DNA of 64,000 nucleotides from an uncultured Bacilli bacterium (GTDB lineage: Bacteria; Bacillota_I; Bacilli_A; RFN20; CAG-449): assembly GCA_947591215.1 (NCBI GenBank), contig CANQCZ010000001.1:27399-91398 (forward strand), written 5' to 3'. The position numbers and the translations under genes were made by a program. Below the pieces are notes generated by a model. That model was given only the letters and a program-made list of their open reading frames with translations. It was not told where the DNA came from and searched no databases. Below, in pieces: positions 1,386 through 47,402 of the stretch; positions within the stretch are counted from its first letter, which is position 1, and the number at the start of each line of letters is the position of its first letter.

Positions 1386-1802
1386 ATGAGAGTAAGATAT
1401 CGTGATACTGATGTGAGTCTGCTTGGAAGACTGATGCGCTCGGAAGCTGTCGGTGAAGGAAAATTCGGAATGCAGTTAGTCGGAAATGTAGTTGTAAATC
1501 GTGTGGTTACTAGTTGTGACACATTTAAAAATATCAATAACATCTACGATGCGGTTTTTCAAAAAGGACAATTTGAAGGAACGCAGACTCCTTTGTTTTC
1601 GGCGCGAGCCACGGAAAAAGAGAAGCAAATGGCATTAAACGTTATCAAATATTGGAGAGCAGATCCTGCTTACGATGCGCTTTATTTCCAAAATCCGGGT
1701 AAAGGAAAAAATTGTAAGACTAATTTTTGGGGAGTCTTTGCCGGAAGATGGAAAAACCATTGTTTTTATGATCCGGAAAATCCTGAAAAATGTGGATTAT
1801 AG
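1386..1802 (+). CDS. Cell-wall hydrolase, SleB/CwlJ-type catalytic domain (Hydrolase_2), standalone 138 aa
   Basis: Motifs LLGRLMRSEA.GEG...VVNRV...IY...QFEG resemble the SleB C-terminal domain. RBS GAGGTG upstream. Confidence 0.65.
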   Translation: MRVRYRDTDVSLLGRLMRSEAVGEGKFGMQLVGNVVVNRVVTSCDTFKNINNIYDAVFQKGQFEGTQTPLFSARATEKEKQMALNVIKYWRADPAYDALYFQNPGKGKNCKTNFWGVFAGRWKNHCFYDPENPEKCGL

Positions 1803-10073: not shown

Positions 10074-11107
10074 TGATAAATTTATATGGACTTACTTTGG
10101 AAAAGCTCGAGGAGCTGATGCTTCTTGAAGGACAAAAAAAATATCGTGCAACTCAATTGTTCACATGGATTTATGAAAAAAAAACGACTACTTTTGATGA
10201 AATGAGCGATGTCTCGAAAAGTTTTCGGGAAGTTTTAAAACAAAAATTTTGCTTGCTGAAACCGAAAGTTTTTTTGCGGCAAAATGCTAAAGACGGCACC
10301 ATCAAACTTCTTTTGGAAATGGCAGACGGCGCAAAAGTCGAAACAGTATTGATGCGTTACAATTATGGTAATGTGATTTGTGTGTCTTCACAGGTCGGAT
10401 GCAACATGGGCTGTTCTTTTTGTGCTTCGGGTTTACTTAAAAAAACTCGTAATTTGACCGTAGACGAAATGGTTGGAGAAGTGCTTTGTGTCAATGATAT
10501 TCTTTTTGAAGAAAACGGAGAACGGGTAACGCACATTGTGGTTATGGGAACCGGAGAGCCGTTTGATAATTATGAAAATGTTATCGATTTTATAAAAATC
10601 GTCAATAATCAGAAGGCTTTTGCAATCGGTGCGCGCCATATCACCGTTTCGACATGCGGCATTCCCGATAAAATCATTCGCTATGGTCAAGAAGGACTGC
10701 AGGTTAACTTAGCCATTTCACTCCACGCCCCTAACGATACTTTGCGTTCAAAATTGATGAAGATCAATCGTGCTTATCCTTTAAAAGTGCTCATTGAAGC
10801 GGTAAAGCAATATATTGCTGATGCTTCGCGGAGAGTGACGTATGAATATATTTTATTGGATGGGGTGAATGATTCTTTAGAAGATGCTGATGAATTGAGC
10901 GAATTAATAAAGCCGACGTTTGCTTATGTTAATTTGATTCCATACAATGAAGTTACCGAAAATGAATTTAAACGTTCCAAAAATGCTAAAGCTTTTATGG
11001 ATCGTTTAATAAAAAACGGGGTCAATTGTACAATCAGAAAAGAATTCGGTGCCGATATCGATGCTGCCTGTGGTCAACTTCGGGCTAAACAGGAGAAAAT
11101 CATATGA
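10073..11107 (+). CDS. rlmN: 23S rRNA m2A2503 / tRNA methyltransferase RlmN (radical SAM)
   Basis: CNMGCSFCASG radical-SAM cluster motif. Conserved position upstream of stp/prkC. Confidence 0.9.
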   Translation: MINLYGLTLEKLEELMLLEGQKKYRATQLFTWIYEKKTTTFDEMSDVSKSFREVLKQKFCLLKPKVFLRQNAKDGTIKLLLEMADGAKVETVLMRYNYGNVICVSSQVGCNMGCSFCASGLLKKTRNLTVDEMVGEVLCVNDILFEENGERVTHIVVMGTGEPFDNYENVIDFIKIVNNQKAFAIGARHITVSTCGIPDKIIRYGQEGLQVNLAISLHAPNDTLRSKLMKINRAYPLKVLIEAVKQYIADASRRVTYEYILLDGVNDSLEDADELSELIKPTFAYVNLIPYNEVTENEFKRSKNAKAFMDRLIKNGVNCTIRKEFGADIDAACGQLRAKQEKII

Positions 11108-31395: not shown

Positions 31396-31608
31396 TTAGT
31401 AACCCGCTCCTTGGCATCCACAGCCACATCCGTTTGATCCTAGAAATGTTTGTCCTTGATTGCTGGAACATCCGCAACCGATGATGACTAAAAGTATGAA
31501 GAGAACAAGGATGATGGCAAAGACTCCACCCCAGCCGTTACTAGAACCGGAAGAAGGATACGCATATCCGCCTTGTGGATAACCGTAATTTTGACCGTAA
31601 TAGTACAT
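31396..31608 (-). CDS. Tiny Gly/Tyr-rich membrane protein (YjcZ-like family)
   Basis: MYYYGQNYGYPQGGYAYP…FAIILVLFILLVIIG is the pattern of small YjcZ-type Firmicutes proteins. A Cys-Gly-rich tail follows. The terminator hairpin GCGGGTT-TTAGT-AACCCGC overlaps the stop. Confidence 0.55.
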   Translation of the reverse strand: MYYYGQNYGYPQGGYAYPSSGSSNGWGGVFAIILVLFILLVIIGCGCSSNQGQTFLGSNGCGCGCQGAGY

Positions 31609-32345: not shown

Positions 32346-32699
32346 ATGCAACAAGATGATTTAGAAAATAAAATCGAAGCGATAGCGCACGAAATAAAAA
32401 ACATGGATGAAAGAAAAAAACTTGTGGAACTTTCCACTAAAATGGAAAATGATCCGGAAGTGATAAAGCTTTCATTAATTTTTCAAAATGCCCAAGAAAA
32501 TTATAATTTTGTTTTAAAGCATTTTAAAGAGGATAGCGAAGAAGTAAAAAAAGCCCAAAAAAGCCTTTACGAAGCTAAAAAAAATTTAGATGAACATCCG
32601 TTAGTAAGAGAGTATAACGCTTTTTATGTCGCATCCAACGAACCTTTAAGATATTTAGAACTAAATTTGATTTATAAATTAAATTCAAAAAAATTATGA
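32346..32699 (+). CDS. YheA/YmcA/YlbF-family regulatory protein
   Basis: 117-aa helical protein (…KLVELSTKMENDPEVIKL…YNAFY…) matching the Com_YlbF family pattern. Confidence 0.6.
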   Translation: MQQDDLENKIEAIAHEIKNMDERKKLVELSTKMENDPEVIKLSLIFQNAQENYNFVLKHFKEDSEEVKKAQKSLYEAKKNLDEHPLVREYNAFYVASNEPLRYLELNLIYKLNSKKL

Positions 32700-33093
32700 A
32701 ATACTTCGTAGGAAGTATTTTTAATTTGCTCAGAAAATGGTATTCGAAAGTGAAAAGGGGAATGGGAGTTCAATCAAATAATGTGGTATTGTTTTTTAGA
32801 AGTTTTTTCCTTAAATTCTTTTCAAAAAATAGTAAATATATCTTTAATAGATACATCGTTTTCAAGCTTTTTAGCATAATAACAATTATTAAGTTTTCTT
32901 ACTCATTATAAAATGCTTCTTTACCATAAAAAGAAGCTATTTTAATTGTAATCTAAAAATTGAATGCTAATTCAAGTTCTTATCGATTGTTAAATCGATT
33001 TTGTTCTATAAAAATTTTTACAATTTATTTGTTGCGCCGGCAATTCTATTGATAATAAATTATTGATGTGTATTGTTATTAGGGAAATTAAAT

Positions 33094-33369
33094 ATGATAA
33101 AAAGAGGGAATATAGCAAATTTAGAAAAATTTTCTAATCAAAATATTTTTAAAATTTCTTATGTATTAAAGGTAGTAGATTATGCAACGGGAACGATTTA
33201 TTATTCCGAGTTTTATTATGCTTATGTAAGTAAACAAATAATTACAATGGAAAAAATTTCGGAGCGATTAAATATATCGAATAATACTTTAAAGCAACAC
33301 ATAAAGAAAATTAATAGCATTATAAATGCCGTAGAAACAATTACAGATGATGATTTTATAAAAATATAA
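33094..33369 (+). CDS. Small hypothetical protein with a helix-turn-helix-like segment
   Basis: …MEKISERLNISNNTLKQHIKKIN… resembles an HTH. First gene of the AT-rich island. Confidence 0.4.
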   Translation: MIKRGNIANLEKFSNQNIFKISYVLKVVDYATGTIYYSEFYYAYVSKQIITMEKISERLNISNNTLKQHIKKINSIINAVETITDDDFIKI

Positions 33370-33401
33370 TAAATTTCAAATTTATCATATTTTTGCTTAT
33401 G

Positions 33402-33428
33402 TTACCAGCCCGATTTTATGGCTGGTAA
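33402..33428 (+). terminator. Possible terminator hairpin
   Basis: TTACCAGCC-CGATTTTAT-GGCTGGTAA 9-bp stem. The downstream U-run is weak. Confidence 0.35.
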
Positions 33429-33476
33429 ATAGTATTTAATATTGCTTATCATAAAAGTGTCGAAAGGAGTCGGAAA

Positions 33477-33938
33477 ATGAATCTTGAGGAATTGCAAGAC
33501 TTTAAATTTTATTTATCATTAAGCTTTGTGATAGTGTTATCATCTATACTTACTATCATTACGGTGGAAATTATAAAGCTAATTCTTAAAAAGAAAAAAA
33601 TAATCACCGAAGAAACAGACGCAGATAAAAAAGACCAGTTACTAATTAAAATCGGTCGATTTGTAGCGCTTCTAATTTATACCATAGTATATCTTATAAA
33701 AGAATTTCTTCTTAAGCATGATCTCATATTCAATGAAGCGTTATTTATCGGACTTCTTTCTGGAGGTGCAGTTACCTTAACAGTTGCTAAAGGATTATAT
33801 ACATCCTTTAGACAAAGTCAAAAAAAGAAAAAGGTGTTCGATAAATTAACTGAAGCGGAAAGTAAGTTAGAAGCTTTACAAAAAGAAGCGCTTGAAAAGC
33901 AAACGAAGATAATATTAACCAGAAAGGAGAGGAACTAA
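33477..33938 (+). CDS. Membrane protein (3 TM) with a C-terminal Lys-rich coiled coil; holin-like architecture
   Basis: RBS AAAGGAG upstream. TM segments, then …KVFDKLTEAESKLEALQKEALEKQTK. Confidence 0.5.
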   Translation: MNLEELQDFKFYLSLSFVIVLSSILTIITVEIIKLILKKKKIITEETDADKKDQLLIKIGRFVALLIYTIVYLIKEFLLKHDLIFNEALFIGLLSGGAVTLTVAKGLYTSFRQSQKKKKVFDKLTEAESKLEALQKEALEKQTKIILTRKERN

Positions 33939-33939
33939 C

Positions 33940-34605
33940 GTGAAATTATTAATGTCATCAATTATTGTACCTAAAATACAACTCCAATATATAAGGGATA
34001 GCAATAAAATTTTTAGAGTAATATCTGAAAGCATTGATCCATTATTTAAACAATTGTTATCTGATAAAAGTATTCGTGTGCAAGTATGGTTGGAACGTGA
34101 AGTTAGAAAATTATCTAATTCAAGAATAAAAAGAAGTTGGGTTCATTCATGCGATATGTCAAATAAAAGACCGACCAAGTTATTTACTAACGGAGAGTAT
34201 AATTATGGTGGTGGCAATGGCTGGGGTTGGAAAGGTAATGATGTGCCATCTTATACAACAACGAATGGAATTGTACCAACTGAATTTGAGGTCACATTAT
34301 CAGATATACAAAATGATTTATTAGTTATAAAGTTTCCTGTAGTTGATATATTTAGCAATATTTTAAAAAAGAAAAAAAGTGGCACATCCGCTAAAGATGG
34401 TGATTTGATTGAGGATTTAGCAATTATATCTAGAGGACGAGCCACGTACCAAATTATAAGAGCTAAATTAGTAGTTAATTATGCTGGTAAAGTCATAATG
34501 AGTGAACCAAGTAATTCGATTATGCTTGGGATTCATAGGAAAAAAGACGCTGTCTTTGATTCGAAAAACTTAGAAAGTTTTATAAAGATCGGAAGGTTCA
34601 TTTAG
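33940..34605 (+). CDS. Hypothetical protein (221 aa)
   Basis: GTG start 6 nt after RBS AAAGGAGAGG, adjacent to the previous stop. No recognised family. Confidence 0.5.
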   Translation: MKLLMSSIIVPKIQLQYIRDSNKIFRVISESIDPLFKQLLSDKSIRVQVWLEREVRKLSNSRIKRSWVHSCDMSNKRPTKLFTNGEYNYGGGNGWGWKGNDVPSYTTTNGIVPTEFEVTLSDIQNDLLVIKFPVVDIFSNILKKKKSGTSAKDGDLIEDLAIISRGRATYQIIRAKLVVNYAGKVIMSEPSNSIMLGIHRKKDAVFDSKNLESFIKIGRFI

Positions 34606-34727
34606 TATAAAGAACATTGATTGTTTGTCCATTAGCTCTAATTATTACTATATTCAAGATAGTTTTAATTTTGATATTTGGCAACCTGTCTAAGCCATGG
34701 TGTGAAACGTTCTAATTCTTATACTAT

Positions 34728-34750
34728 AAATCGGAGTTTAAATCCGATTT
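34728..34750 (+). promoter_or_regulatory. Hairpin immediately upstream of the rhs-operon RBS
   Basis: AAATCGGA-GTTTAAA-TCCGATTT stem-loop, 25 nt before ATG 34776. Possible terminator or attenuator separating the upstream three-gene module. Confidence 0.3.
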
Positions 34751-34775
34751 TTAATATTAAGAAAGGAAAATAAAA

Positions 34776-36323
34776 ATGAAATCATTTACACTTAAAGACA
34801 AAACAAATAAAAACATTAATATTGAAACAGCGAAGTTGGATATTGAAAATTCACGTCAAGAAGATATTTCGAAGCGTACGTTATTTGCTAAGCATTTTAT
34901 TAACGATGATGGAACTTACACTATGGAAGTAAGTCCATTCCCAATTCATTATTACGATACTAAAACTAAATCTTATGAAGAGATTGATAATACCCTTGAA
35001 GAATCTAATGGTAAGTTCTCAATTAAAAAAAATAAGATGAAATTATCATTTAATAAAGAAATTAGCGATGATGCTCCATTGTTTAATATCGAAAAAAAAG
35101 GACATCGTTTTCAACTTTTTTATCTTGGTAAAAAAGAGAAGGTTGGAAATAAAGTTTTAAGAAAAGTAAAAGGGAAAACTAAACGTTTTACAAAACAGAT
35201 AAGTAACTTAACTTATGAAGAAATTGAACCAAAAATCGATTTAGAATATAGCGTTCAATACAATAGAATTAAAGAAAACATTATTATTAAAGAACGGCAA
35301 GAAAGCTATGAATTTTCTTTTTTAGTAAATGTAGGGACATTAACTGTCAGTTTAAAAAAAGATGATTCATGTATTGAATTAGTAGATGCACATCAAGAGG
35401 TTCAATATATAATTCCCTCACCGATCATGTTTGATCAAAATAATAATTCTTCTACCGATTTAGGATATGAAATCGAAATAAGTGAAGATGGTAATCTTAT
35501 TTTCACCTTAAAAGCAGATGCTGATTGGATCAATTCTAATGAACGGGCTTTTCCCGTCGTTATTGATCCGCAAGTTGTGATAACAATTGATGATAATAAT
35601 ATCACAAAACATTTTCAGATAAAAAATAATGTTGCTTCAGTAGCGGGTACCAAGGGATATATAGATAATTCATCGTCATCGAATGCATATTTAATTGCTA
35701 TTGATGTAAGTAGTCTCTTATCGACAAAAATATCTTATGCTGAACTGATTTTTGAAAATGCTAATACTATGCCAAATAGTGCGTCGATACAGGCAAAGTA
35801 CTACAATATTAATAATGATGAAGTAAATAGTTCTTCTTTTACGATTAATACATCTAAGGAAAGCAATTTTACAAGTTTCACAGGACCAACATCAGGAAAA
35901 GCCTCACTTATTATGCCGGGAGCTTTAAATAAATGGATAAGCGAAAAAAAACAAATTGGAGCATTATTATTTAGATCGACAGGTTTATATGCTGGTTCAT
36001 ACACTTTTTATCCACCGACATTAAGTATTAAATATACTTTACAAATTTCAGCTCCTAGTTTTTATATCAATTTGAAAAATGATTGTATTACAGAAATCGT
36101 TACTGGCGCTGACGTCGGATTAAGATACGCTGCTAGAGAAAAAGGAGTTTTAACTACTTATGTCGATCAAACAAGTAGTAAAGTTTATCAAATTTTAAAT
36201 ATACAAGACAGGATTTATACGCGAAGAAATAATAACGATTTAGATAATTGGAACGAGTGGGAAAAACATAGTTTACGGGCTAAATTACAAAATGGTAATT
36301 TGTATTTAACAGATGAAGATTAA
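34776..36323 (+). CDS. Hypothetical 515-aa protein co-oriented with, and 15 nt upstream of, the Rhs gene (putative Rhs partner/accessory protein)
   Basis: RBS GAAAGGAAAA upstream. No signal peptide. Beta-rich, Asn/Ser-rich sequence. Tight linkage to rhs suggests an operon. Confidence 0.55.
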   Translation: MKSFTLKDKTNKNINIETAKLDIENSRQEDISKRTLFAKHFINDDGTYTMEVSPFPIHYYDTKTKSYEEIDNTLEESNGKFSIKKNKMKLSFNKEISDDAPLFNIEKKGHRFQLFYLGKKEKVGNKVLRKVKGKTKRFTKQISNLTYEEIEPKIDLEYSVQYNRIKENIIIKERQESYEFSFLVNVGTLTVSLKKDDSCIELVDAHQEVQYIIPSPIMFDQNNNSSTDLGYEIEISEDGNLIFTLKADADWINSNERAFPVVIDPQVVITIDDNNITKHFQIKNNVASVAGTKGYIDNSSSSNAYLIAIDVSSLLSTKISYAELIFENANTMPNSASIQAKYYNINNDEVNSSSFTINTSKESNFTSFTGPTSGKASLIMPGALNKWISEKKQIGALLFRSTGLYAGSYTFYPPTLSIKYTLQISAPSFYINLKNDCITEIVTGADVGLRYAAREKGVLTTYVDQTSSKVYQILNIQDRIYTRRNNNDLDNWNEWEKHSLRAKLQNGNLYLTDED

Positions 36324-36338
36324 TGGAGAAAATAAATA

Positions 36339-39300
36339 ATGGACAAGGATTTTCAAGATATTGAGAGAGTTTTTTATAATGGTAATGAAGTTGAAAGAGT
36401 ATTTTATAATGGTCAAGAAATAGTGAAAAACATCTATTATCGTTTTTCTAATGAAAAAAGCCGCATTGGACAAACTGAATTAAGTTATCAATGTGGGGTA
36501 GGAGAGGCAAAAGTAAATGTTTATACAGGACGCCTATCTTTAATTCATCCGGATATTAATATAGGCGCGGGTAATTTTGAAATCGGGATATCTCATATTT
36601 ACAATAGTTCTTGGTCAACTAAATTTGATAATGTGATGGGAAATGGTTGGAAACTTAATTTACAGCAATATTGTTATCCATATGATGATAACGATGAAGA
36701 AAGACTTCTTGGTTATGAAAAAGGAGATTATGTTTATATAGATGCTGAAGGTTATAAACATCGTTTCGTTATATATAAAGAAAAAGATGGTGTAGCATAT
36801 TATTACGATGATGCAAAAAATAATTTAATCTTAAAGAAAATATCAGAAAGCAAATTAGAGATCAGCAATCCAACAGGCTCTACATTATGCTTTAACAAAG
36901 ATGGTCAATTATATTCTATTGTTTCTCCATACAATACAACTATTGTTAAACATATTGAATACAAGGATGGTAAAATAGATTCTGTATATGATAAACGTAA
37001 CTCAAATCGAGTGCTTTATTTTAAGTATAATAAAGAGGATTTACTAAGTGAAATTAGTTGTGAAGAAAATTCAATTATATTAAAGACATTACATTATTTT
37101 TATGATTCAGATAATAATCTTATTAGAATCACTAAGCAAGTTAATACATCTACTAAGACGGTAGCTTTTTTTAGCTATGATTCAAATGATTTAATTCATA
37201 TAATGGATGGAGAAGATAATTCGGCAATATTATTCTCATATAAAAATTTCGATGATAAATATGTAACTAATGTTAAAATCGGCACAGGTAAAAAAACATT
37301 TTCAAATTCTTCAAAAATTGATTTAAAAGAAATTAAAAATGAAACAAAGTTTGATTATGAATCGACCTCTAATACTTTAGTGACGACTGAAAAGGGAATC
37401 ACATATCTTTATCAATTTAATAAACGTGGATTTACTTCAGCAATTTTTGAAAAAGATGGTCATAATTTACGTACTTTAACAAAGGAAAATGGTTGGTCAT
37501 TAAGCAATGGTAATCAAACTACCTCAATCAATGGAAAACATAGTGAAATTGTATATGGTGAAACTTACTTATTAACTAAAGAAAAATTGTACAATTTTCT
37601 AAATATATTTGCTGGTGCAACTAATTATTCTTATGTTGAAAATTATACGTTATCATTTTGGATTAAATTGAAATCAGTAGTATATAATGATGTTTTGGCA
37701 AGATTAAAGATTATTACTGTTCCAGCTCTTCAAGAAGTAACCTTAAATTTTAAAAGTAGGATTGATCATACAGCTTATGATGTGTGGCAACATGTGACTA
37801 TCCCGATTGATTTCCAATTATTCGAAGCTAATTATGATAATTCTGTGGACTATAGTGAATCTGGAATTCAAAATGAAGTCCCTAAATTAAAGGAAAACAT
37901 AAATGAAATGCGAATTAGCTTAGAAGGTATTCCATTGGATTCCTCTTTTGAAATTGCAGATATTCAAATAGCGGTTGGATCTCAAAATCATTTAGTTATA
38001 GCTGGAAAAAATTTTGAAGATGCCGATTATATTTATTGTTATATTGGTAATAAGTGTGAAAAGAAGGCTATTAATTCAAACTTTTTTATGACTTTGCAAG
38101 ATGTCATTTTAACATATCTTAATATGCATAAATGCGCAAATGAAAATGATAAATTTGATATGGTTGCTTGCGATGGAACAAAAGTAATCGAGGTAAACGC
38201 TATATCGTTTACAACACCTAAATTTAATGAATGTAAGTTTAAATTTTTAGATGATGGTAAACCAAATTTCTATTTAGTATGTAAAAATCGTAGAGCTCAA
38301 AGTCAATGGTTAGTAACCGAAACTGATTTTACATTTCGCAATGATTATATCGAGCAAAGAACTTCGGTTGATGTGATAGAAAAATATTATATTTGTATTG
38401 ATGAAAATAGCAAATCTAGAAATTATAGCTGGTATTTTTACAATGGTTTATTAAAAGCTCAAAAAGACGCATATGGAGTAATCACTGAAAATAAATATGA
38501 TGATTATGGAAATCTTATTGAAATAGTTATTTACAATGAAAATGATTCAAATAAACTAATTAGAACTATTACATTTGATGAATTTCAACTTAATGATTCG
38601 AAATTAAGTAAAGTTCAATATCAAATAAATGACAATGGCGTTTTAAGTAAACAAACTTTTAATTTACCATTTTTTCAATTGGATTCTGAGACTGTATTTA
38701 ATGGTGATACGACTTTATATGAAAAATGCTACATATATGATGATATTTTTGGTGACAAATTAACTAAAATATCTGTAAAAAGCGATTTGAAAAAGATTGA
38801 TACGTATTTTAAATATACTGATGAAGGATATTTAAATGATATTTCTGATGATTCTAAAAATCATTATCAGTTTGAGTATGATATTTTTGGAGACATTACC
38901 TCATATAACTTGATTGATGAAGATAATAATGTTACTGAATTATTGCAAAAAGAAAATATAAACTATGATAATCATTTCGAGGCCATTATCGAAAAATATC
39001 CATCGGATAATTCATCATTCACTAGAGAGTATTTGTATGATCAATATAATAGACTTACATCGATTCGCGAAAATGAAGAACATATTAAATTTGATTATGA
39101 ATCAAACGAAGAAAGCCGGATGTTGGCTCAAGTAGAATATATTGATGACCCGTATACAAAACAAAAAAATGTTATTAAGTATGATTCAAATACTGGATTA
39201 TATACGTATAGTACAATTAATGAAGAGAGTAGTACTAGTAATCAAGGTTTATCAATCGTTCAAATTGGACAAAATAAAACAAAATATATATTATGTGATG

Positions 39301-41066
39301 GAGAAAACAAAACTGAGCGAATCAGTGAATTTATTTATGATGATAATGAAGAAATAGAAAACAAAATATATCTTAACCCACGTCTTGCAAAGACTAAAGA
39401 TTACCTAGTCGATAATGAATCTGAAGAATTTAATTTTTCGTATGAATGGGATGGATTAGGTAGATTAAAAAAACAACAATATTCTGATGAAACTAAATTT
39501 TATGAATATTCCTATAATGATTGTGGAAGAATCAATAAAGTTGAATTTCATTTTAATGAGAATAATTTTGTTTTTCAATATACATACGATTCTATAGGTA
39601 ATATAAAAACTATCAAGGAAAATATCAATAATGATAATAAAATAGAATATACTTATGATTCATTTAATCAATTATTATCAGAAGTTAATTCAAAATTAGG
39701 TATTAATAATAAATATACTTATGATTCTAAAGGAAGATTATATGAAATTAATATAAATAATTCTACAAAGAAAATTTTCAATTACCATAGTAAAGGTAGG
39801 CTAATAGAACTACAATCCGGTAATACGACCTATAAGTATACCTATACATCAAATGGTAATTTAGAAAAAATATATATAAATCAACTAGATACGCTAGATA
39901 CATTAGAGCATGTATTGATATGGGAAAGACATAGTTTACTTAAAGAATACGATAAAAATCAGTATTTCTATAATTATCAAGGAATAAGATATAAAAAGAT
40001 TGTTAATGGAATAACTAAATTCTATTATCTAAGTGGTGAAAAAATTTTAGGTGAAGATTGGTCAAATGGAATTAAAATACGTTATTTCTATGATGCAAAT
40101 GGTATTGCAGGTTTTACATATAAAGGAAAAACATATCATTACATAAAAGATATACAACAAAATATCAGAGCAATTCAAAAAGAATGTGATATAATATGTA
40201 CATACGAATATGATGCTTATGGGAATTGTTATACAGCAACTTATGAAGACATTGATGATATTGCCACCATAAATCCATTTAGATATCGTGGATACTATTT
40301 TGATGTGGAGACAGGACTATATTATTGCAACTCTAGGTATTATTCACCAGAACTATGTAGATGGCTTACACCTGATTCAATTGAATATTTAGACCCTGAA
40401 TCTATTAATGGCTTAAATCTATATTGTTATTGTTATAATAATCCAGTAATGTACGCAGATCCTAGTGGACATTTACCAGAATGGGCTTGGAAATTAATTA
40501 TTGGTACAAGTTTCATTTTAGTTGGTGCATTGGTTACAGCAGCTACTGCAGGAGCAGGAGCAACTTTTTGGGCAACCTTTGGTTCAGCATTATTAACATC
40601 AACTATTCAAACTGGAATAAGTGCTGCTGTTAGTGCTAGCCTTGGTTTTATTGTTGGAGGTATTTCCACTGGTACGTTGGAAGGTGCTTTTACTGGAATG
40701 ATTGATGGTACGGTTGATGGTTATATGTGGGGAGGTATTATTTCTGGCGGTTCGCAAATTCTAAGTGGTTTAATGAAAGTTGGAAATGGTATATCTTCTG
40801 GTAGGATTGAGGCATTGTATAAGTCTGAAAATTCAACAACATTATTTAATTATAATAATGCTGCTGGAAAGAGTAAATTCAGAATAGATGTCGCTAAAGG
40901 TAAAGTTAAATATCCCGGTGGCAAAACAGGTTTCTTGAGTGGGAAAGAACTATATGGGTTACATTACCATTTTGGTAAAACTAATTCTCTAAGGGAACTA
41001 CATAGATTCTTTACTCCTGGTGTTGTTAATGGATTTATTTCTTCTTTGTTAGATTATTTATTTTAA
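36339..41066 (+). CDS. Rhs/YD-repeat polymorphic toxin: Rhs core ending in …YCYNNPVMYADPSGH, then a roughly 197-aa variable C-terminal toxin domain
   Basis: Multiple YD repeats (YTYDSIGNI, YTYDSFNQL, YTYDSKGRLYE, YEYDAYGNCY), the RHS repeat-associated core (…FRYRGYYFDVETGLYYCNSRYYSPELCRWLTPDSI…) and a DPxG-type cleavage motif (ADPSGH) at aa 1373-1378. The sequence downstream of that point is unrelated among the five copies. Confidence 0.9.
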   Translation: MDKDFQDIERVFYNGNEVERVFYNGQEIVKNIYYRFSNEKSRIGQTELSYQCGVGEAKVNVYTGRLSLIHPDINIGAGNFEIGISHIYNSSWSTKFDNVMGNGWKLNLQQYCYPYDDNDEERLLGYEKGDYVYIDAEGYKHRFVIYKEKDGVAYYYDDAKNNLILKKISESKLEISNPTGSTLCFNKDGQLYSIVSPYNTTIVKHIEYKDGKIDSVYDKRNSNRVLYFKYNKEDLLSEISCEENSIILKTLHYFYDSDNNLIRITKQVNTSTKTVAFFSYDSNDLIHIMDGEDNSAILFSYKNFDDKYVTNVKIGTGKKTFSNSSKIDLKEIKNETKFDYESTSNTLVTTEKGITYLYQFNKRGFTSAIFEKDGHNLRTLTKENGWSLSNGNQTTSINGKHSEIVYGETYLLTKEKLYNFLNIFAGATNYSYVENYTLSFWIKLKSVVYNDVLARLKIITVPALQEVTLNFKSRIDHTAYDVWQHVTIPIDFQLFEANYDNSVDYSESGIQNEVPKLKENINEMRISLEGIPLDSSFEIADIQIAVGSQNHLVIAGKNFEDADYIYCYIGNKCEKKAINSNFFMTLQDVILTYLNMHKCANENDKFDMVACDGTKVIEVNAISFTTPKFNECKFKFLDDGKPNFYLVCKNRRAQSQWLVTETDFTFRNDYIEQRTSVDVIEKYYICIDENSKSRNYSWYFYNGLLKAQKDAYGVITENKYDDYGNLIEIVIYNENDSNKLIRTITFDEFQLNDSKLSKVQYQINDNGVLSKQTFNLPFFQLDSETVFNGDTTLYEKCYIYDDIFGDKLTKISVKSDLKKIDTYFKYTDEGYLNDISDDSKNHYQFEYDIFGDITSYNLIDEDNNVTELLQKENINYDNHFEAIIEKYPSDNSSFTREYLYDQYNRLTSIRENEEHIKFDYESNEESRMLAQVEYIDDPYTKQKNVIKYDSNTGLYTYSTINEESSTSNQGLSIVQIGQNKTKYILCDGENKTERISEFIYDDNEEIENKIYLNPRLAKTKDYLVDNESEEFNFSYEWDGLGRLKKQQYSDETKFYEYSYNDCGRINKVEFHFNENNFVFQYTYDSIGNIKTIKENINNDNKIEYTYDSFNQLLSEVNSKLGINNKYTYDSKGRLYEININNSTKKIFNYHSKGRLIELQSGNTTYKYTYTSNGNLEKIYINQLDTLDTLEHVLIWERHSLLKEYDKNQYFYNYQGIRYKKIVNGITKFYYLSGEKILGEDWSNGIKIRYFYDANGIAGFTYKGKTYHYIKDIQQNIRAIQKECDIICTYEYDAYGNCYTATYEDIDDIATINPFRYRGYYFDVETGLYYCNSRYYSPELCRWLTPDSIEYLDPESINGLNLYCYCYNNPVMYADPSGHLPEWAWKLIIGTSFILVGALVTAATAGAGATFWATFGSALLTSTIQTGISAAVSASLGFIVGGISTGTLEGAFTGMIDGTVDGYMWGGIISGGSQILSGLMKVGNGISSGRIEALYKSENSTTLFNYNNAAGKSKFRIDVAKGKVKYPGGKTGFLSGKELYGLHYHFGKTNSLRELHRFFTPGVVNGFISSLLDYLF
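40308..40472 (+). repeat. rhs core-end repeat, master copy (inside rhs)
   Basis: About 162 nt encoding ETGLYYCNSRYYSPELCRWLTPDSIEYLDPESINGLNLYCYCYNNPVMYADPSGH. It is repeated four more times downstream at about 93 % identity. Confidence 0.9.
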
Positions 41067-41081
41067 TTATTGGGTGATATT

Positions 41082-41417
41082 ATGAGAATTGAATCTTTAA
41101 AGCAACTTTATGAGATAATATTAAAAAAAATGCCGAGTTATAAGATAGTGTTAAATGAAAGCAATTTAATTATTGAAAATTCGGCGAATCACTTTATTAA
41201 AATAGTTTTTAACCATGGTTTCTTTGATGTTTATATTGATAATTTTCATTATTATGATGTTGATACGTGGGATATAGAAGACACTATCGAGTCTATTATG
41301 ACAGAAGAATACATTTTATTTAAGAATAATACAGTTTATACTTTATCGCAAAAACAATACGAAAAAGTTATAAAAAAAGATAAGAAGGCATGTATAATTA
41401 AATTTAATAATGATTAA
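41082..41417 (+). CDS. Candidate immunity protein for the main Rhs C-terminal toxin
   Basis: Small ORF starting 16 nt after the rhs stop and co-oriented. No family recognised. Position is typical of Rhs immunity genes. Confidence 0.5.
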   Translation: MRIESLKQLYEIILKKMPSYKIVLNESNLIIENSANHFIKIVFNHGFFDVYIDNFHYYDVDTWDIEDTIESIMTEEYILFKNNTVYTLSQKQYEKVIKKDKKACIIKFNND

Positions 41418-41616
41418 TATTTATGATGTGTCATTTCCTTATAAAATAGAAAAAATCAATAGTGGATGGGTTTATTGTAGGTAGGTTCTATGGTAGAGCA
41501 ATTAAAAAGAGTTTTAAATAGTGTTAAAGAAGAGATAAAAGTGAAAATTTCATTTGGGATAAAGAAAAAATAATTTCTGTTGCGAAACCTAAAAATGGAA
41601 GAATTATAGTCCAGTC

Positions 41617-41931
41617 GAAACAGGACTATATTATTGCAATTCTAGATATTATTCACCAGAACTTTGTAGATGGTTAACACCTGATTCCATTGATTATTTA
41701 GACCCTAAATCTATTAATGGATTAAATCTATATTGTTATTGTTATAATAATCCAGTAATGTACGCTGATCCTAGTGGACATTTTGTGATAACACTGATTG
41801 CAGGTTTAACAATATCGTTTTTAATAGGTGCTATATCGAGTACAATTAGTCAATATGTTCAATATGGTGAAGTAAACTGTCTTCAAGCAGGAGTTGATGG
41901 ATTGTTTGCTTTAGCAAAAAATAGAAAATAG
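41617..41931 (+). other. Orphan rhs C-terminal cassette 2: core-end repeat (41617-41781) fused to a short, probably truncated 50-aa C-terminal domain. No in-frame start upstream of the internal Met.
   Basis: In-frame stop at 41590-92. Then ETGLYYCNSRYYSPELCRWLTPDSIDYLDPKSINGLNLYCYCYNNPVMYADPSGH, followed by FVITLIAGLTISFLIGAISS…AKNRK and a stop at 41929-31. Confidence 0.7.
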
Positions 41932-41980
41932 TGAAAGACTTTCACGAGCAAAATAATTTTATAAAAGGAGGATGTTAAGT

Positions 41981-42430
41981 ATGAAAATATATTATAAATT
42001 AAGTGATAATTATAATCCAAATTATATAGTAAAATATGATGATAACTCTTTTGGAGCTTATGGAGTGTATTTTGATTTTCAAGTTGTATTAACATCAGCT
42101 GGTTCAGTTATTTTAAATTTTGATCTTTATTCAAAGAGATGTGAATCATGTGAAGGATATCTAGCAATTAAAATTAATAAGAAAACTAAATACGAAAATA
42201 TAGATATTGAAAATTATAGTAATGGTGAATTATTAATTGAACTAGATGATTTTGAAAAAGAGGTACCTATGTGTGAATACTTATTAGACGGTAAGTTTAA
42301 ATATGATATTAACAAATCACGAATTTGCATAGGTAATATTAATAGTAACGAAGTTATTATGTTTGGCAAAGGTCAATATGCATCCTTTCAAAATGGCAAA
42401 TTAATTGGTGTAATTATAGATTTAAAATAA
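41981..42430 (+). CDS. Candidate immunity protein of cassette 2
   Basis: RBS AAAGGAGG is 9 nt before ATG 41981. 150 aa, contains CESCEGY. Follows the orphan C-terminal domain. Confidence 0.5.
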   Translation: MKIYYKLSDNYNPNYIVKYDDNSFGAYGVYFDFQVVLTSAGSVILNFDLYSKRCESCEGYLAIKINKKTKYENIDIENYSNGELLIELDDFEKEVPMCEYLLDGKFKYDINKSRICIGNINSNEVIMFGKGQYASFQNGKLIGVIIDLK

Positions 42431-42470
42431 ATAGCAAATTACTTTCACAAGCACAATATGTAAGTTTACT

Positions 42471-43196
42471 GAAACAGGACTATATTATTGCAACTCTAGG
42501 TATTATTCACCAGAACTATGTAGATGGCTAACACCTGATTCAATTGATTATTTAGACCCTAAATCTATTAATGGCTTAAATTTATATTGTTATTGTTATA
42601 ATAATCCTATAATGTACGCAGATCCTAGTGGGCATTTTGGAATATTAGCATTGATTGCAATAACTGGATTTTCAATGCTAATAGGTGGAGCTGTTCAGCT
42701 GATATCAAATGCGATGGCTGGTAAAACTGGAAGTGAATTATGGCACGGAGTTGCAGGAGCGACCTTAGGAACTGGTGCTAATGCCTTAGCATTGTGGTTG
42801 TCACCATTTACGGGCGGAGCATCATTAGCTTTTGCTACAGTAATATCGGCTGGCATTCAAACTGGTGTTGATACGCTTGAAACAATCATCAGAGGTGAAA
42901 AAAATAAATGGATGGCAAACTATTGCTGATTTTGGTATTAATTTTGCAACAATATTTGCAGGCAACTATATAGGTAGCAAATTAATTTCAATAAATTAAG
43001 GATGGTTTCAACCTAAAAAGTTTTTGAGTGTTTTTACAAAATCATATGGTCAAAAAATCTTATTGCAATCATCAATAGGTGCTGGACTATCTGGAATAGT
43101 AAACTTAATAAAAAAATTTGATTTTAATAGACTTGAGTTGAAAGACTTTATTCCAAACATACCTGTTCCAATGATTCCAAATATTTTCGGAGATTA
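42471..43196 (+). pseudogene. Orphan rhs C-terminal cassette 3, disrupted by two frameshifts
   Basis: Core-end repeat 42471-42635 (…MYADPSGH), then a Gly/Ala-rich hydrophobic region. The reading frame breaks at about 42929 (…MANYC stop) and continues in the +1 frame (WQTIADFGINFATIFAGNYIGSKLISIN) and then another frame (GWFQPKKF…PNIFGD stop 43196). Confidence 0.65.
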
Positions 43197-43211
43197 AGGA
43201 GATTAAAAATT

Positions 43212-43598
43212 ATGATTATAAAAGATAAATTAATAAAAGAATATCCATTAACTAAAAAAATAGATTGCTTTTTTGAATGTTTTGAAGTTATAAAAAGAAG
43301 ATATGTTATTTTCTATGATGAAAAAATTAATAAAGAAAATATTAAATCTTTACTTGATGTATTTAATGAAAATACAAATAATAATTTTTCTAAGAAAAAA
43401 ACATTAATTGTTGTTGCATGTACTAATGAACAGTTTAATAAAGAAGATTTATTATTTTTTAATGGTGTAGATACATTTATTGTATATTATTTAATAAATG
43501 AAAATACAAATGAAATTTATTTTAATGATCAAAAGATGTTGTGGTTTAGTATAGATTGGAAAAAAATAATTAAAAAATTTAATGAAATATTAAAATAA
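43212..43598 (+). CDS. Candidate immunity protein of cassette 3
   Basis: RBS AAGGAG upstream. 128-aa Lys/Asn-rich protein with no family. Confidence 0.5.
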   Translation: MIIKDKLIKEYPLTKKIDCFFECFEVIKRRYVIFYDEKINKENIKSLLDVFNENTNNNFSKKKTLIVVACTNEQFNKEDLLFFNGVDTFIVYYLINENTNEIYFNDQKMLWFSIDWKKIIKKFNEILK

Positions 43599-44019
43599 TT
43601 ATCAAATTACTTTCACAAGCAAAATAATTTTATCAAAGATAACGCTATTAACAATTTTATTCATTTAAAACAAATAATTAGAGATATGCTCATAAAAATA
43701 TTAAATATAAACAAAAGAAATAATAATATGATAAAATATAGATGTCTAGTTCTATGCTTTATTTTACGAGAGGTAAAATGAAACAAAAAGAATTATATAA
43801 GACAGCAATATATAACTAGAACTACTGGTATTGCAGCAAAAGCTTTAAAACTATTAGGTCAAAATTTAGTTAAACAATAGAATAAAATGGTTATTGACCA
43901 AGTAGGGAAAAATTTTAGGAAAGCATTATCATTTGGTGGAATAGCATTATTATTTGGAACTGTTTTGGTAAAAGATTACTATACGACTGGATTAATGATA
44001 ATTTCTAGGGGGACTTAAT

Positions 44020-44493
44020 ATGTTAGATAATATTTTGATTATAACAATTTTATTTTCTATAGTATTAAGTTTTTTAATAGTTAAAGTTTGGCGAAAAAAA
44101 CACTTTGTAAAATCGTTATACATTGATCAAGGCGTTTCAATAACATTTTATGTCATTGCGCTTGCTTTCACAATTGTCTTACTAACAATATATTACATAC
44201 AAGCATATAATTGGTTGTTTTTGCTAATGCTATTATTATATGATTTATGTTCATTATTTATATTTTGCATTTTAACAACTACTTGTATTTATTTAAAAGA
44301 TAACGTTGTGATTAAAAAAAATATTTTTATTACAAAAAAAATATTGCTTAATAAAGAAACGAAAATAATCGAAAAAGCAACCAAAACAATTATTAAATCT
44401 AAAAATAAATCCATTTCTATTAGTTCAAGACATTTAAATGGAAGTATAAGAAGGTTTATATATGATATTAAGATAATAATTAATGAGTCATAA
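44020..44493 (+). CDS. Membrane protein (4 TM), possible orphan membrane immunity protein
   Basis: RBS AGGGGGA upstream. Hydrophobic. Sits between cassettes 3 and 4. Confidence 0.45.
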   Translation: MLDNILIITILFSIVLSFLIVKVWRKKHFVKSLYIDQGVSITFYVIALAFTIVLLTIYYIQAYNWLFLLMLLLYDLCSLFIFCILTTTCIYLKDNVVIKKNIFITKKILLNKETKIIEKATKTIIKSKNKSISISSRHLNGSIRRFIYDIKIIINES

Positions 44494-44535
44494 TAAGATA
44501 ATAAAGTCGAATAGCATTATATTAGATTTTTTTAC

Positions 44536-45191
44536 GTTACTATTCACTAGAACTATGTAGATGGATTACACCTGATTCAATTGATTATTTAGATCCAGAA
44601 TCTATTAATGGCTTAAATCTATATTGTTATTGTTATAATAATCCAGTAATGTACGCTGATCCTAGTGGACATTTTGCAATTAGTTTAACATTACTTGGAT
44701 TAATTGTTGGAGCCGTGGTTGGAGCAACAATAGGAGGAATCGCTGCTTATAATATTGCAAAGGATCATGGTGCTGAAGGATGGGAATTATTTGGATGGAC
44801 TATGGCAGGTATAGTTGGAGGAGGTATAATTGGTGGCGCTTTAGGTGCGGGAATTGGAGCGATTGTTACAAAAGTGACTGGAGTTATAGGTTTATCAATA
44901 ACGAAATATTCTATTATACCAATTAAAGGTACAACAATTTTAGGAGATATGCCTGGATATATTGGAGCAGCACAAGCAACGGGTTTAGGATATTATTTAA
45001 TTTCAAATAAATTGTGGGAAAACTTAGATGCAACTCAACGCTGGCTTAACAATATGCAATATATTAAAGATGCTAATACATTAGGATCTCAATTTGCGTT
45101 GGTTCCTGATTTTGTGGTTAAAGCAGGCACAACATTATGGCAGGAAATACAATATTTAATTGAAAACGGCATTCCTTGGATATTATTCTAA
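44536..45191 (+). other. Orphan rhs C-terminal cassette 4: 5'-truncated core-end repeat (44536-44672, starting at RYYSLELCRW) plus a roughly 170-aa C-terminal domain
   Basis: …NPVMYADPSGH, then FAISLTLLGLIVGAVVGATIGGIAAYNIA… (Gly-zipper hydrophobic segment), then a variable domain. Upstream in-frame stop; the only Met is the internal MYADPSGH. Confidence 0.7.
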
Positions 45192-45218
45192 AAACAATTT
45201 GGAGGGTAAGTAATAATT

Positions 45219-45518
45219 ATGTATAATAATTTACTTTATAAGACATTTGATAAAAAATATAAAGAAAAATACAATAAATTTTTATTGTTGTGTAATAAAT
45301 ATAATGCAAAAATTATTAAATTTGATTATTACAAAAAAGTATTTGGAAATTTTGTAATTGAGATAGAATATAACGAAAAACATCACATAATTATAACGGA
45401 TAGAGGAGACATAATTTTTAATGGAAAATATATATGTGATAACTCGTATCTTAGTACAGGACAAGACACATTTAATAAATTACTTGAGATGATAGAAAAA
45501 AATCTGTTTAACAAATAA
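45219..45518 (+). CDS. Candidate immunity protein of cassette 4
   Basis: RBS GGAGGG upstream. 99 aa. Confidence 0.5.
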   Translation: MYNNLLYKTFDKKYKEKYNKFLLLCNKYNAKIIKFDYYKKVFGNFVIEIEYNEKHHIIITDRGDIIFNGKYICDNSYLSTGQDTFNKLLEMIEKNLFNK

Positions 45519-45685
45519 ATCACATATTGGTAAAATAAAAATTTTGATTATAGAAATCTAAATTTAAAAAACAACAAAAATAATTTAAAAAAATGAATAG
45601 TTAGCAAATTACTTTCACAAGCAAAATAATTTTATTAAAATTAACTTTATTAACAAATTTATTAGTTAAAATAAAAATTAATTAT

Positions 45686-46510
45686 GATGTTGAAACAGGA
45701 CTATACTATTGCAACTCTAGGTACTATTCACCAGAATTTTGTAGATGGATTACACCTGATTCAATTGAATATTTAGACCCTGAAAGTATTAATGGCTTAA
45801 ATCTATATTGTTATTGTTATAATAATCCTATAATGTACGCAAATCCTAGTGGACATGCTCCTTGGTGGAGTTGGGCATTATCAGGATTACAATTAGTAGC
45901 AGGAGTTGCATTATGCTTTGTTCCAGGCATGCAAGGATTAGGTGTTTCATTAGCAATTGGCGGTGCAACTGGATTAATTATGAATGTGTTAGAGCCACAA
46001 TTAGCTCAAGCAATTGGAGGAGTAGGATCTATGGCAAATGGCTATGGCGCCATTTCTACAGGTATTAGTTTGATGAGCTTAGGTGGATGGGTAGTAGTTG
46101 CTGGTTTGTGCTTAACAGTAATTGGTTTTGGAACAATGGCTTTTGGTGCAAACGAGGTTATAGATGCTATGACTGATACAAATTACATTCAAAAGTGGAC
46201 TGGTATGAGTGATTCGGCATATGCTTGGTCATATTTGGGATTAAACTTTGCATCAAGCATCGGTCAAGCAGCAGGTAATGTGTATCGTTTACATGCTACA
46301 AGAGAAATAAGATTTAATCATAGTGGCACTGAAATTAGAGGATATAGATATCGTGATAGAAAAGGTAATCCATTCTTTGATTTTGATTATCCACATAAAG
46401 ATATACCTTATAATCATTGGCATGGATGGGATGGGCCTAGATTAACTAATAGAACAGGAGATCATTGGAGTTACTTAAGATTAATTTTGTGGATGTTAGG
46501 AGGAATGTAA
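45686..46510 (+). other. Orphan rhs C-terminal cassette 5: core-end repeat (45686-45856) plus a roughly 217-aa C-terminal domain
   Basis: …NYDVETGLYYCNSRYYSPEFCRWITPDSIEYLDPESINGLNLYCYCYNNPIMYANPSGH, then APWWSWALSGLQLVAGVALCFVPG… (hydrophobic Gly-rich segment), then a His/Trp-rich domain (…HWHGWDGP…). Confidence 0.7.
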
Positions 46511-46864
46511 ATGAAATTAAAACGTAAATTTAAACATAATTATGGTAGTGACATACTAAATGAAGCTTATGAAAAACTTTTTAATGGAGAACATATGTCC
46601 TATGAGGAATTTGTAATTATGCTTTCAACAAATGATGAACTATATTTTTATTATATTGAAAAAGATGGTGAAAAAGAATATCAAGTTGAACATTGGGGTG
46701 ATGGCACTGTATATATGTGTGTTACTAGATATGAAGATGGTAAAAAGATTCTAGAAAGAAATGAAAAATTTAATTCTATTATTGAACTATTAAATGATTT
46801 TAGAATTGAAGGTAAAAGCATATACGAAATATGGCCAGATGTTATGTTTGCAAAGTCAAGATAA
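46511..46864 (+). CDS. Candidate immunity protein of cassette 5
   Basis: RBS AGGAGGA is 7 nt upstream. ATG immediately follows the cassette-5 stop (TAAATG). Confidence 0.55.
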   Translation: MKLKRKFKHNYGSDILNEAYEKLFNGEHMSYEEFVIMLSTNDELYFYYIEKDGEKEYQVEHWGDGTVYMCVTRYEDGKKILERNEKFNSIIELLNDFRIEGKSIYEIWPDVMFAKSR

Positions 46865-46991
46865 CAAAATAATTATGTTTTAACACAAACTTGCAGGGGT
46901 GTGTCTATTCAATGGAAAATCTTTTATCAGCTCATTAATGATAATCATATATGGTTAAAATGGTTTAGTTATTATTTATAGGAGAAATCAA

Positions 46992-47402
46992 ATGGAATTC
47001 GTTATTTATAAAGAAAATTTTGTTGAAGAATTTCACAAAAACTTTTTACCATTATTTTCAATTAAAAAATTAAAAAAATTAAATTGTTATGCTCCTAACC
47101 ATGGCTATTTATGGAATGCTTGTGAACATAATCTAGTTGAAAATTTAAAGGGCAAAGATGCAATGTTAGCATATGATAATATTGATAAGACAGGTGCAAT
47201 AGAATTTCAATATGATAATGGATTTATGGGTGATGATATTTCAAAACCACTTTCAAAAGAAAATGATAATTCAATAAAAATTCAAAATAATGGTTTGATT
47301 GAATTTTATGTAATTGGTTTAAATTTCTCATGGTGTTATATTGTGACACACGAGCCAGATGGTTGTGGTCCATATTTTATTATTAATAAAAATAAAAGTT
47401 GA
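46992..47402 (+). CDS. Hypothetical protein (136 aa), possible orphan immunity gene
   Basis: RBS AGGAGAAA upstream. Last gene of the AT-rich island. Confidence 0.45.
   Translation: MEFVIYKENFVEEFHKNFLPLFSIKKLKKLNCYAPNHGYLWNACEHNLVENLKGKDAMLAYDNIDKTGAIEFQYDNGFMGDDISKPLSKENDNSIKIQNNGLIEFYVIGLNFSWCYIVTHEPDGCGPYFIINKNKS

Follow-up and report, generated by a model that had tools for sequence, protein, structure and literature searches.

Candidate accessory genes ORF1-ORF3 of a split, signal-less RHS toxin locus in an uncultured Bacilli bacterium

The passage of RHS/WapA toxins of ~180-350 kDa across the membrane and the thick wall of Gram-positive bacteria poses a question even for the forms that carry a Sec signal (PMC12704120). 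We consider this question for an RHS locus of an uncultured Bacilli bacterium (lineage CAG-449), located in a 64,000-nt stretch of contig CANQCZ010000001.1 (assembly GCA_947591215.1) that is referred to below, over its whole length, as the window. In front of the toxin genes lie three open reading frames (ORF1-ORF3), all on the plus strand, which the original prediction, made from the letters alone, had treated as a module of unknown function, possibly an accessory or defence-type unit or a part of the toxin-export machinery. In the best reading of the sequence, ORF1-ORF3 would be the 5' accessory part of a self-contained WapA-type RHS polymorphic-toxin locus that has been split and has lost its Sec signal. 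We put the probability that ORF2 and ORF3 act within it as dedicated export, release or assembly factors at about one half.

The module and the toxin genes that follow it comprise the following features, given with the evidence on which each rests.

33094-33369, plus strand: ORF1, a small helix-turn-helix (HTH) protein of 91 amino acids (aa), sigma-70 region 4/YlxM-like (near-threshold HTH matches, homologues)
33477-33938, plus strand: ORF2, a 153-aa membrane protein with three predicted transmembrane (TM) segments, novel family (hydropathy, AF2 model, charge pattern)
33940-34605, plus strand: ORF3, a 221-aa soluble basic protein with a predicted Ig/FN3-like beta-sandwich (GTG start, structure model, conserved motif)
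34776-36323, plus strand: p515, 515 aa, without a signal peptide and homologous to the N-terminal surface-domain part of Gram-positive WapA/RHS-type proteins and of other proteins that act outside the cell (homologue search)
36339-41066, plus strand: RHS toxin, 1575 aa (Pfam RHS_repeat 1.3e-10, DUF6531 9.6e-6)
41070-41417, plus strand: putative immunity gene (by position only)
41070-47402 for the whole region, plus strand: orphan toxin-tip and immunity cassettes, following the putative immunity gene and reaching to 47402 (ORF list, translations)

Conservation of the gene set with RHS toxin loci

The ORF2 and ORF3 families were seen only beside RHS genes of this type, at different chromosomal sites, and the co-occurrence with rhs loci that the original prediction had proposed to look for is thus strongly positive. 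Wherever a lineage offers enough sequence on the 3' side, its ORF3 homologue is followed by a homologue of p515 (p5xx, ~490-548 aa across lineages) and then by the RHS gene, except in L025, which has no separate p5xx. The ORF3-linked lineages are the window with L010, L011 and L022, the group L001-L006 with L024, and L007, L009, L014, L017, L019, L023 and L025; the contig of L019 stops inside its p494, so that p5xx is visible and RHS is out of reach. ORF2 lies directly 5' of ORF3 in nine of ten lineages. Depending on the lineage, the set is flanked by ylbF, trmE, upp/def, pth, a DNA-polymerase III/dnaX-type cluster or a Pribosyltran/DUF3810 region, and because these flanking genes differ, the gene set is taken to travel as a unit. 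ORF2 is nearly always present, and ORF1 often, around a strict core of ORF3, p5xx and RHS, the core being drawn from the P0008 lineage (L001-L006, L024), which is without ORF1 and ORF2. The three genes do not form a self-contained module, since ORF1 is found in only about half of the lineages and ORF2 is missing in one; an accessory role for the rhs locus is supported.

Each of the three ORFs has homologues in several lineages, and rough dN/dS (nonsynonymous to synonymous substitution) ratios are ~0.1-0.2 (ORF2), 0.13-0.43 (ORF3) and 0.3-0.4 (ORF1), dS being close to saturation. The presence of homologues and the low ratios together show that ORF1-ORF3 are real genes rather than chance ORFs, and by the same ratios they are under purifying selection.

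The position of the module at the edge of an AT-rich island, the holin-like architecture of ORF2 and the tight packing of ORF2 and ORF3 could also be expected of a defence system, a toxin-antitoxin pair or a degenerate prophage lysis cassette that merely adjoins the rhs operon. We consider such an unrelated module very improbable. Its ORF2 and ORF3 families are exclusive to this RHS type at many chromosomal sites, neither family has a homologue in phages (zero tblastn matches for both across 50,697 phage genomes), and no integrase or phage genes flank the set in any lineage. PADLOC returned only marginal matches, for ORF1 (E 0.0027, type IIG restriction enzyme model) and ORF2 (E 0.0024, PDC-M18B), and none for ORF3 or p515; with noise only from this source and no phage homology, the suggestion of a defence-type module is set aside.

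The island downstream has the features of an RHS/WapA-type polymorphic-toxin locus, namely RHS/YD repeats, DUF6531, a cleavage motif, a variable tip, a putative immunity gene and orphan tips. The 1575-aa protein opens with 57 acidic aa and a duplicated (V/I)FYNG.E motif, continues with DUF6531 and the RHS repeats, and ends with a YADPSGH cleavage-type motif followed by a glycine-zipper/TM-rich toxin. PT-HINT, Colicin_D, Imm26, Imm51 and Imm64 domains are carried by related loci. Toxin tips (PT-HINT, Colicin_D, glycine-zipper) and immunity genes vary from locus to locus while ORF2 and ORF3 are constant, which argues that the latter two serve the conserved shell and the delivery part rather than immunity.

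Canonical WapA unites a Sec signal, a wall-anchoring N-terminus and the toxin in one polypeptide; the window encodes p515 and RHS separately, and both are signal-less. No signal peptide or N-terminal TM segment was found on ORF3, p5xx or RHS in any locus (maximum 15-residue hydropathy <=1.4). For the N-terminal half of p515, homologues were found in an N-terminal domain of many extracellular Firmicute proteins; its distant relatives carry PF24517/DUF7948, PF25778, ricin-type lectin or C39 domains, and among them are one protein named 'DNRLRE domain-containing protein' and one RHS N-terminus (P0055). A signal-peptide-like N-terminus occurs in ~23 of the 32 distant homologues of this domain, including P0055, and in none of the ORF3-linked subgroup. 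For p515 itself nothing above threshold was obtained in Pfam, PHROGs, NCBIfam or PADLOC, and a sequence search of the PDB gave no meaningful match.

Several observations on individual loci may be added. The orphan toxin tips of the window, which open with MYA(D/N)PSGH, are encoded by ORFs at 42612, 44649 and 45833; they contain glycine-zipper/TM-rich segments and are interspersed with small putative immunity ORFs. A DUF4275 protein is encoded at 46992-47402. A rabbit-gut metagenome-assembled genome (MAG), L022, apparently belongs to the same species as the window: its ORF3 (10001-10663, against window 33940-34602) has 97.7% protein identity, and its ORF2 and p515 have 100%. In the P0008 lineage, which is widespread and whose RHS proteins of ~1800 aa have a PT-HINT domain, a 320-bp spacer separates a divergent upp from ORF3 (L001, 9680-10000). 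P0064 (462 aa), which is distantly homologous to the N-domain of p515 and has no signal peptide, is encoded between SU10_adaptor genes in a phage-like structural cluster (L032, 2148-7467), and the domain thus also occurs in virion-type proteins.

The most distant locus, L025 (GCA_031556235.1, 9289-17678), encodes a 61-aa HTH protein, a 143-aa ORF2-like protein and a 237-aa ORF3-like protein, followed by a single RHS protein of 2085 aa without a separate p5xx gene, and then by immunity-type genes, with a TM-rich putative immunity protein. The C-terminal RHS core of this protein is homologous at 1e-50. Its N-terminus, considered as a possible fusion of p515 to the RHS, showed no similarity to p515 in a BLASTP comparison; it holds the string 'DSNNRLTLG', which is reminiscent of the DNRLRE motif.

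Two new protein families upstream of the toxin genes

ORF2 has an AAAGGAG ribosome-binding site (RBS). Hydropathy analysis gives three hydrophobic segments (residues ~10-35, 58-78 and 86-105), and the AF2 model (predicted local distance difference test, pLDDT, 74) has three long helices (3-39, 49-80 and 87-142), the last of which extends from the membrane into the tail. The N-terminus is acidic with no lysine or arginine (K/R), loop 1 is basic with seven K/R, and the C-terminal 49 residues hold 14 K+R and 7 D+E, the net charge of the tail being +4 to +10 across the family. Because this charge distribution fits the positive-inside rule, ORF2 is predicted to be oriented N-out/C-in. Hydropathy, model and charge thus bear out the 3-TM, basic-tail, holin-like architecture that had been ascribed to it: the protein is small, with TM helices, a highly charged hydrophilic C-terminus and the predicted N-out/C-in topology of class I holins.

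The term 'holin-like' applies to the architecture of ORF2 only. None of 13 family members matched a Pfam holin family at E<=1, and the best match to phrog_1299 'holin', found in five of the 13, had an E-value of only 0.064 and is no evidence of membership. The same holds for a weak match to the NCBIfam SecDF model NF009584 (E 7.3e-5, in two of the 13), which aligns ORF2 residues 13-130 with profile positions 629-750 of 759, that is, with the last SecDF TM helices. No significant match was found in Pfam, PHROGs or NCBIfam, against which all 13 members were scanned, or in PADLOC; the ORF2 profile (A2) had no meaningful PDB sequence match, and no PDB or BFVD fold was matched (best BFVD E 0.53). 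The family comprises 12 clusters among 5.8 billion proteins.

The alignment with SecDF is one of the points that favour ORF2 as a Sec-accessory, 'SecF-like' factor for RHS export through Sec, with ORF3 as a cytoplasmic targeting chaperone. Export of WapA in S. suis, and with it wall localisation and killing, requires a small membrane protein, SecF-like and encoded just 5' of wapA (PMC12704120), and ORF2 occupies the same position, directly 5' of a Gram-positive WapA/RHS set with a DNRLRE-type domain and DUF6531. The cargo of the window-type loci, however, is without signal peptides, and the match to SecDF does not recur consistently within the ORF2 family (2/13 members), which makes this alternative quite unlikely.

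The start codon of ORF3, GTG, lies 1 nt past the stop codon of ORF2, and a GGAGAGG RBS lies within the 3' end of ORF2; here the original prediction, which had listed three tightly packed ORFs with this spacing, start codon and RBS, was accurate. In the eight lineages measured, the junction between the two genes ranges from -4 to +12 nt, with a GGAG RBS embedded in the 3' end of ORF2. The short junction and the internal position of the RBS indicate that ORF2 and ORF3 are translationally coupled.

ORF3 has no TM segment and no signal peptide. Its isoelectric point (pI) is 9.8, and all full-length members of the family are basic (pI 8.7-9.8). The model is an Ig/FN3-like beta-sandwich (pLDDT 75, predicted template modelling score, pTM, 0.77), and the most conserved motif of the family, Y.YGGG.GWGWK...P.Y.TTNGIVPTE, is invariant and falls in a poorly modelled loop. 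The family consists of 10 clusters among 5.8 billion proteins; five relatives were returned by an exhaustive profile search of 1.84 billion representatives, three loci by a genome scan and four by a metagenome scan. Two metagenome loci, L029 and L030, were rejected as spurious, the match being a 38-residue motif in a high-GC unrelated protein.

In agreement with the earlier statement that ORF3 has no recognisable family, no significant match was found in Pfam, PHROGs, NCBIfam, PADLOC, PDB sequences (profile A1) or BFVD/PDB folds, and the searches returned no hydrolase family and no enzyme or endolysin-type fold. A paralogous relation of ORF3 to the p515 domain was ruled out by hhalign (probability 0.3%). 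By their sequences, ORF2 and ORF3 are two new protein families that annotation pipelines leave blank.

The modelled fold of ORF3 also bears on a different role, in which ORF3, perhaps together with ORF2, would contribute a structural subunit to the toxin particle or to the display of the toxin at the surface, with ORF3 as a cap or as a wall- or receptor-binding module and ORF2 as its membrane anchor. Compatible with such a role are the FN3/Ig-like fold, the conserved loop, which is aromatic and rich in Gly, and a basic surface to which anionic polymers of the wall could bind, as is the composition of the WapA N-terminal region from several beta-sandwich surface domains (PMC12704120). The structural role likewise fits the retention of ORF3 with p5xx and RHS where ORF2 has been lost; overall we regard it as rather unlikely. 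In the export or assembly reading, ORF3 is taken for a partner of p5xx/RHS because it is coupled to ORF2 and yet is kept with the toxin genes where ORF2 is lost.

Candidate control elements and genomic setting

ORF1 is probably a local regulator of locus expression, as its sequence matches suggest. The mechanically called frame opens at TTG 33073 (98 aa) and is likely too long. All ORF1 homologues start with MLKR..., the window counterpart being MIKR... at ATG 33094, and gene callers applied to public contigs from this species begin the gene at L010 2829, equivalent to window 33094. ORF1 is therefore assigned to 33094-33369, with 91 aa rather than the 92 first proposed; the HTH-like character given to it at the same time is upheld by matches close to threshold. 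All of its Pfam matches are below threshold (HTH_11 3.7e-5 with 24.0 bits against a cut-off of 25; Mga; GerE; Sigma70_r4 with 14 against 24.1), and the PHROG match is to 'RNA polymerase sigma factor' (3.9e-4). The homologue in L007 is just above the Pfam UPF0122/YlxM threshold (23.1 vs 22.7), and there is a weak alignment (E 0.009) between ORF1 and region 4 of a sigma-70-like protein of L017. Homologues of ORF1 are located 5' of ORF2 in five lineages (L007, L009, L016-18 and L025), or about half of the lineages.

Other putative regulators were observed at related loci. In L017 an additional sigma-70-like protein of 168 aa is encoded 5' of the ORF1 homologue (1074-1580; region 2 and region 4 matches just under threshold), in L009 there is a second ORF1 paralogue in divergent orientation (1531-1788, minus strand), and in L014 a divergent gene for a 309-aa HTH_3 protein (8898-9827, minus strand) takes the place of ORF1.

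Two hairpins were found in the spacers of the window locus.

33402-33428, plus strand: hairpin UUACCAGCC / GGCUGGUAA with a weak U-run, 3' of ORF1 (read from the sequence)
34728-34755, plus strand: terminator-like hairpin (34728-34750) with a U-run, 5' of p515 (terminator scan, intergenic alignment, folds)

The first was not called by the terminator scan. The second lies in the ORF3-p515 spacer (34606-34775), ~25 nt 5' of the p515 start, and single-sequence folds place a hairpin at the same position in eight lineages (the window, L001, L007, L009, L014, L017, L019 and L025). Its stems differ between lineages (CGGA/UCCG, GUCA/UGAC, CCGAA/UUCGG, GACCGAUAG/UAUCGGUC, AACUGGAU/GUCCAGUU), and a consensus prediction also returns it. 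Two conserved blocks, ATTGATAGTnTGTCCATT and TGGTGTGAnACGnTCTAATTCTT, were observed 5' of the hairpin in the closer relatives. No leader structure beyond the hairpin was found in a comparison of four sequences, and an Rfam search of 32.6-36.5 kb gave no credible match, the hairpin included. As the space 3' of the hairpin is too short for a promoter, transcription of the toxin genes has to pass through the hairpin or begin within it. The hairpin, which annotation pipelines pass over, may act as an attenuator or leader for the toxin operon.

The position of this hairpin, between ORF2-ORF3 and the toxin genes, would fit equally well with a regulatory cassette, in which ORF1 would act as a transcription factor, ORF2 would hold or sequester a membrane-bound partner, and ORF3, as a basic beta-sandwich, would act on the leader DNA or RNA at the hairpin just 3' of its own gene, so that the toxin operon would be gated by their combined action. 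We judge this cassette unlikely as the function of the module.

The setting of the module is as originally described, between a ylbF-like gene and the rhs operon at the left edge of an AT-rich island, according to both Pfam matches and base composition. The G+C fraction is 0.21-0.33 across ~32-48 kb and 0.32-0.44 (mostly 0.34-0.40) in the flanks. On the 5' side the neighbours are ylbD-, ylbE- and ylbF-like genes (Pfam YlbD_coat 6e-15, YlbE 1e-10, Com_YlbF 7.6e-9); on the 3' side p515, the 1575-aa RHS gene, the small putative immunity ORF and the orphan cassettes follow in this order.

The ylbDEF unit ends, and the island begins on its left side, at a bidirectional terminator-like hairpin (32915-32937). 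An ORF of 71 aa that starts in the last bases of ylbF (32696-32911) looks non-coding, and the public contigs have no gene call for it. A Gly/Tyr/Cys-rich protein of 70 aa with a single TM segment is encoded between def and ylbD on the minus strand (31396-31608; MYYYGQNYGYPQGG...GCGCSS...GCGCGCQGAGY), and a small def-adjacent gene is present at the equivalent position in L001 (61 aa) and L010 (70 aa). The 70-aa protein presumably resembles the YjcZ-type tiny sporulation proteins.

A possible exit route and its relation to known systems

One of the closest known arrangements is that found in srtB-secF-like-wapA loci of S. suis and other Lactobacillales, which have in common with the window locus a DNRLRE-type domain, DUF6531, an RHS shell, a variable toxin and immunity genes (PMC12704120). 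The order within S. suis WapA is Sec signal, DNRLRE/LysM wall-binding part, DUF6531-Rhs and toxin, and the protein autocleaves between the wall-binding part and DUF6531-Rhs (PMC12704120). This cleavage point corresponds to the gene split between p515 and RHS in the window. A small multi-pass membrane protein is encoded directly upstream in both cases, here ORF2, which precedes ORF3-p5xx-RHS in the nine lineages noted above. In contrast to S. suis, the large proteins of the window locus have no Sec signals and the N-terminal part is encoded by its own gene; none of the window-type loci has a sortase call; ORF2 has three TM segments and a SecDF match that is marginal and inconsistent; and a further, coupled novel protein, ORF3, is present. 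WapA of Bacillus subtilis is likewise a contact-dependent, wall-associated toxin of the RHS/YD-repeat kind; its C-terminus is polymorphic, and an immunity gene follows downstream. It differs in being one polypeptide that includes a Sec signal and wall-binding repeats, and it has no partners resembling ORF2 or ORF3.

In the export or assembly reading, p515 would be the counterpart of the wall/surface-domain part of WapA, and the 1575-aa protein would combine a DUF6531-RHS shell with a polymorphic toxin. As the domains of p515 and RHS would act outside the cell and are nevertheless without signal peptides, another exit would be needed. ORF2 is proposed for it because it is the only membrane protein conserved with p515/RHS and because its size, topology and tail resemble those of class I holins and of TcdE. 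ORF2 and ORF3, made together through translational coupling, would bring the signal-less p515 and RHS to and across the membrane, or release them: ORF2 may be a membrane conduit or permeabiliser that acts like a holin, and ORF3 a cytoplasmic adaptor or assembly (or structural) partner that contacts the toxin proteins. ORF1 would be the HTH controller of the expression of the locus. We infer the export or assembly role, this division of labour and the regulation by ORF1 from sequence, models and gene context, and a part in toxin export, among the options first raised for the module, is plausible. In its most specific form, which we hold only tentatively and with considerable doubt, the proposal is that ORF2 and ORF3 constitute a new minimal, Sec-independent, holin-like and lysin-less export or release route for folded RHS-cocoon toxins in monoderms. 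Such a route would also carry a separately encoded surface-binding subunit, and its expression would be gated by the leader hairpin and the sigma-region-4-like regulator.

Precedents for such a route are found among holin-dependent systems. TcdE reportedly provides a holin-type route for the release of the large signal-less toxins of C. difficile, and the type 10 secretion system (T10SS) is said to act as a holin-type release system for Tc toxins, which contain an RHS-type TcB-TcC cocoon. TcdL of C. difficile, encoded beside TcdE, is not known to be an active lysin. The pathogenicity locus (PaLoc) with TcdE, TcdL and TcdR and the T10SS Tc loci share with the window locus large signal-less toxins, a small protein with three TM segments and a charged C-terminus on the cytoplasmic side, a small sigma/HTH-type regulator and a second small protein that adjoins the holin-like gene. 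They differ from it in that ORF2 belongs to no holin family, ORF3 lacks an endolysin or endolysin-remnant fold, no phage ancestry is seen and ORF2 is missing in one lineage; moreover, the window-type toxins look antibacterial, given their orphan tips and immunity genes, rather than host-directed. Type VI secretion system (T6SS) Rhs effectors with EagR/adaptor proteins are also named among the closest known systems. The literature on S8-PTS and on bacterial teneurins was considered and found not relevant to the ORF1-ORF3 module.

Several points weigh against an export or release function of ORF2 and ORF3. ORF2 has no holin homology in sequence or fold (Pfam, PHROGs, phage genomes, BFVD). The locus contains no peptidoglycan hydrolase, none was found within 10 kb in related loci, and ORF3 is without an enzyme fold. 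A terminator-like hairpin parts ORF2-ORF3 from the toxin genes, an arrangement that suits a regulatory role just as well. The human-gut P0008 lineage has ORF3, p495 and RHS with no ORF1 or ORF2 within 10 kb, so ORF2 is either dispensable or supplied from elsewhere. Finally, the carriers are all uncultured Bacilli/Bacillota MAGs or gut metagenomes, sampled from human, rabbit and probably ruminant gut.

The locus is rare and known from uncultured bacteria, and the evidence on it is purely comparative. It represents a variant of the WapA/RHS locus in which the Sec signals are absent and two private accessory protein families have been added: every large component is signal-less, and two private, co-conserved small proteins stand where S. 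suis has its export factor. The set of four to five genes offers a compact system in which to address whether RHS cocoons can exit monoderm cells along a holin-like path or by some other non-classical one. As its carriers are gut Bacilli, it may be relevant to competition within the gut.

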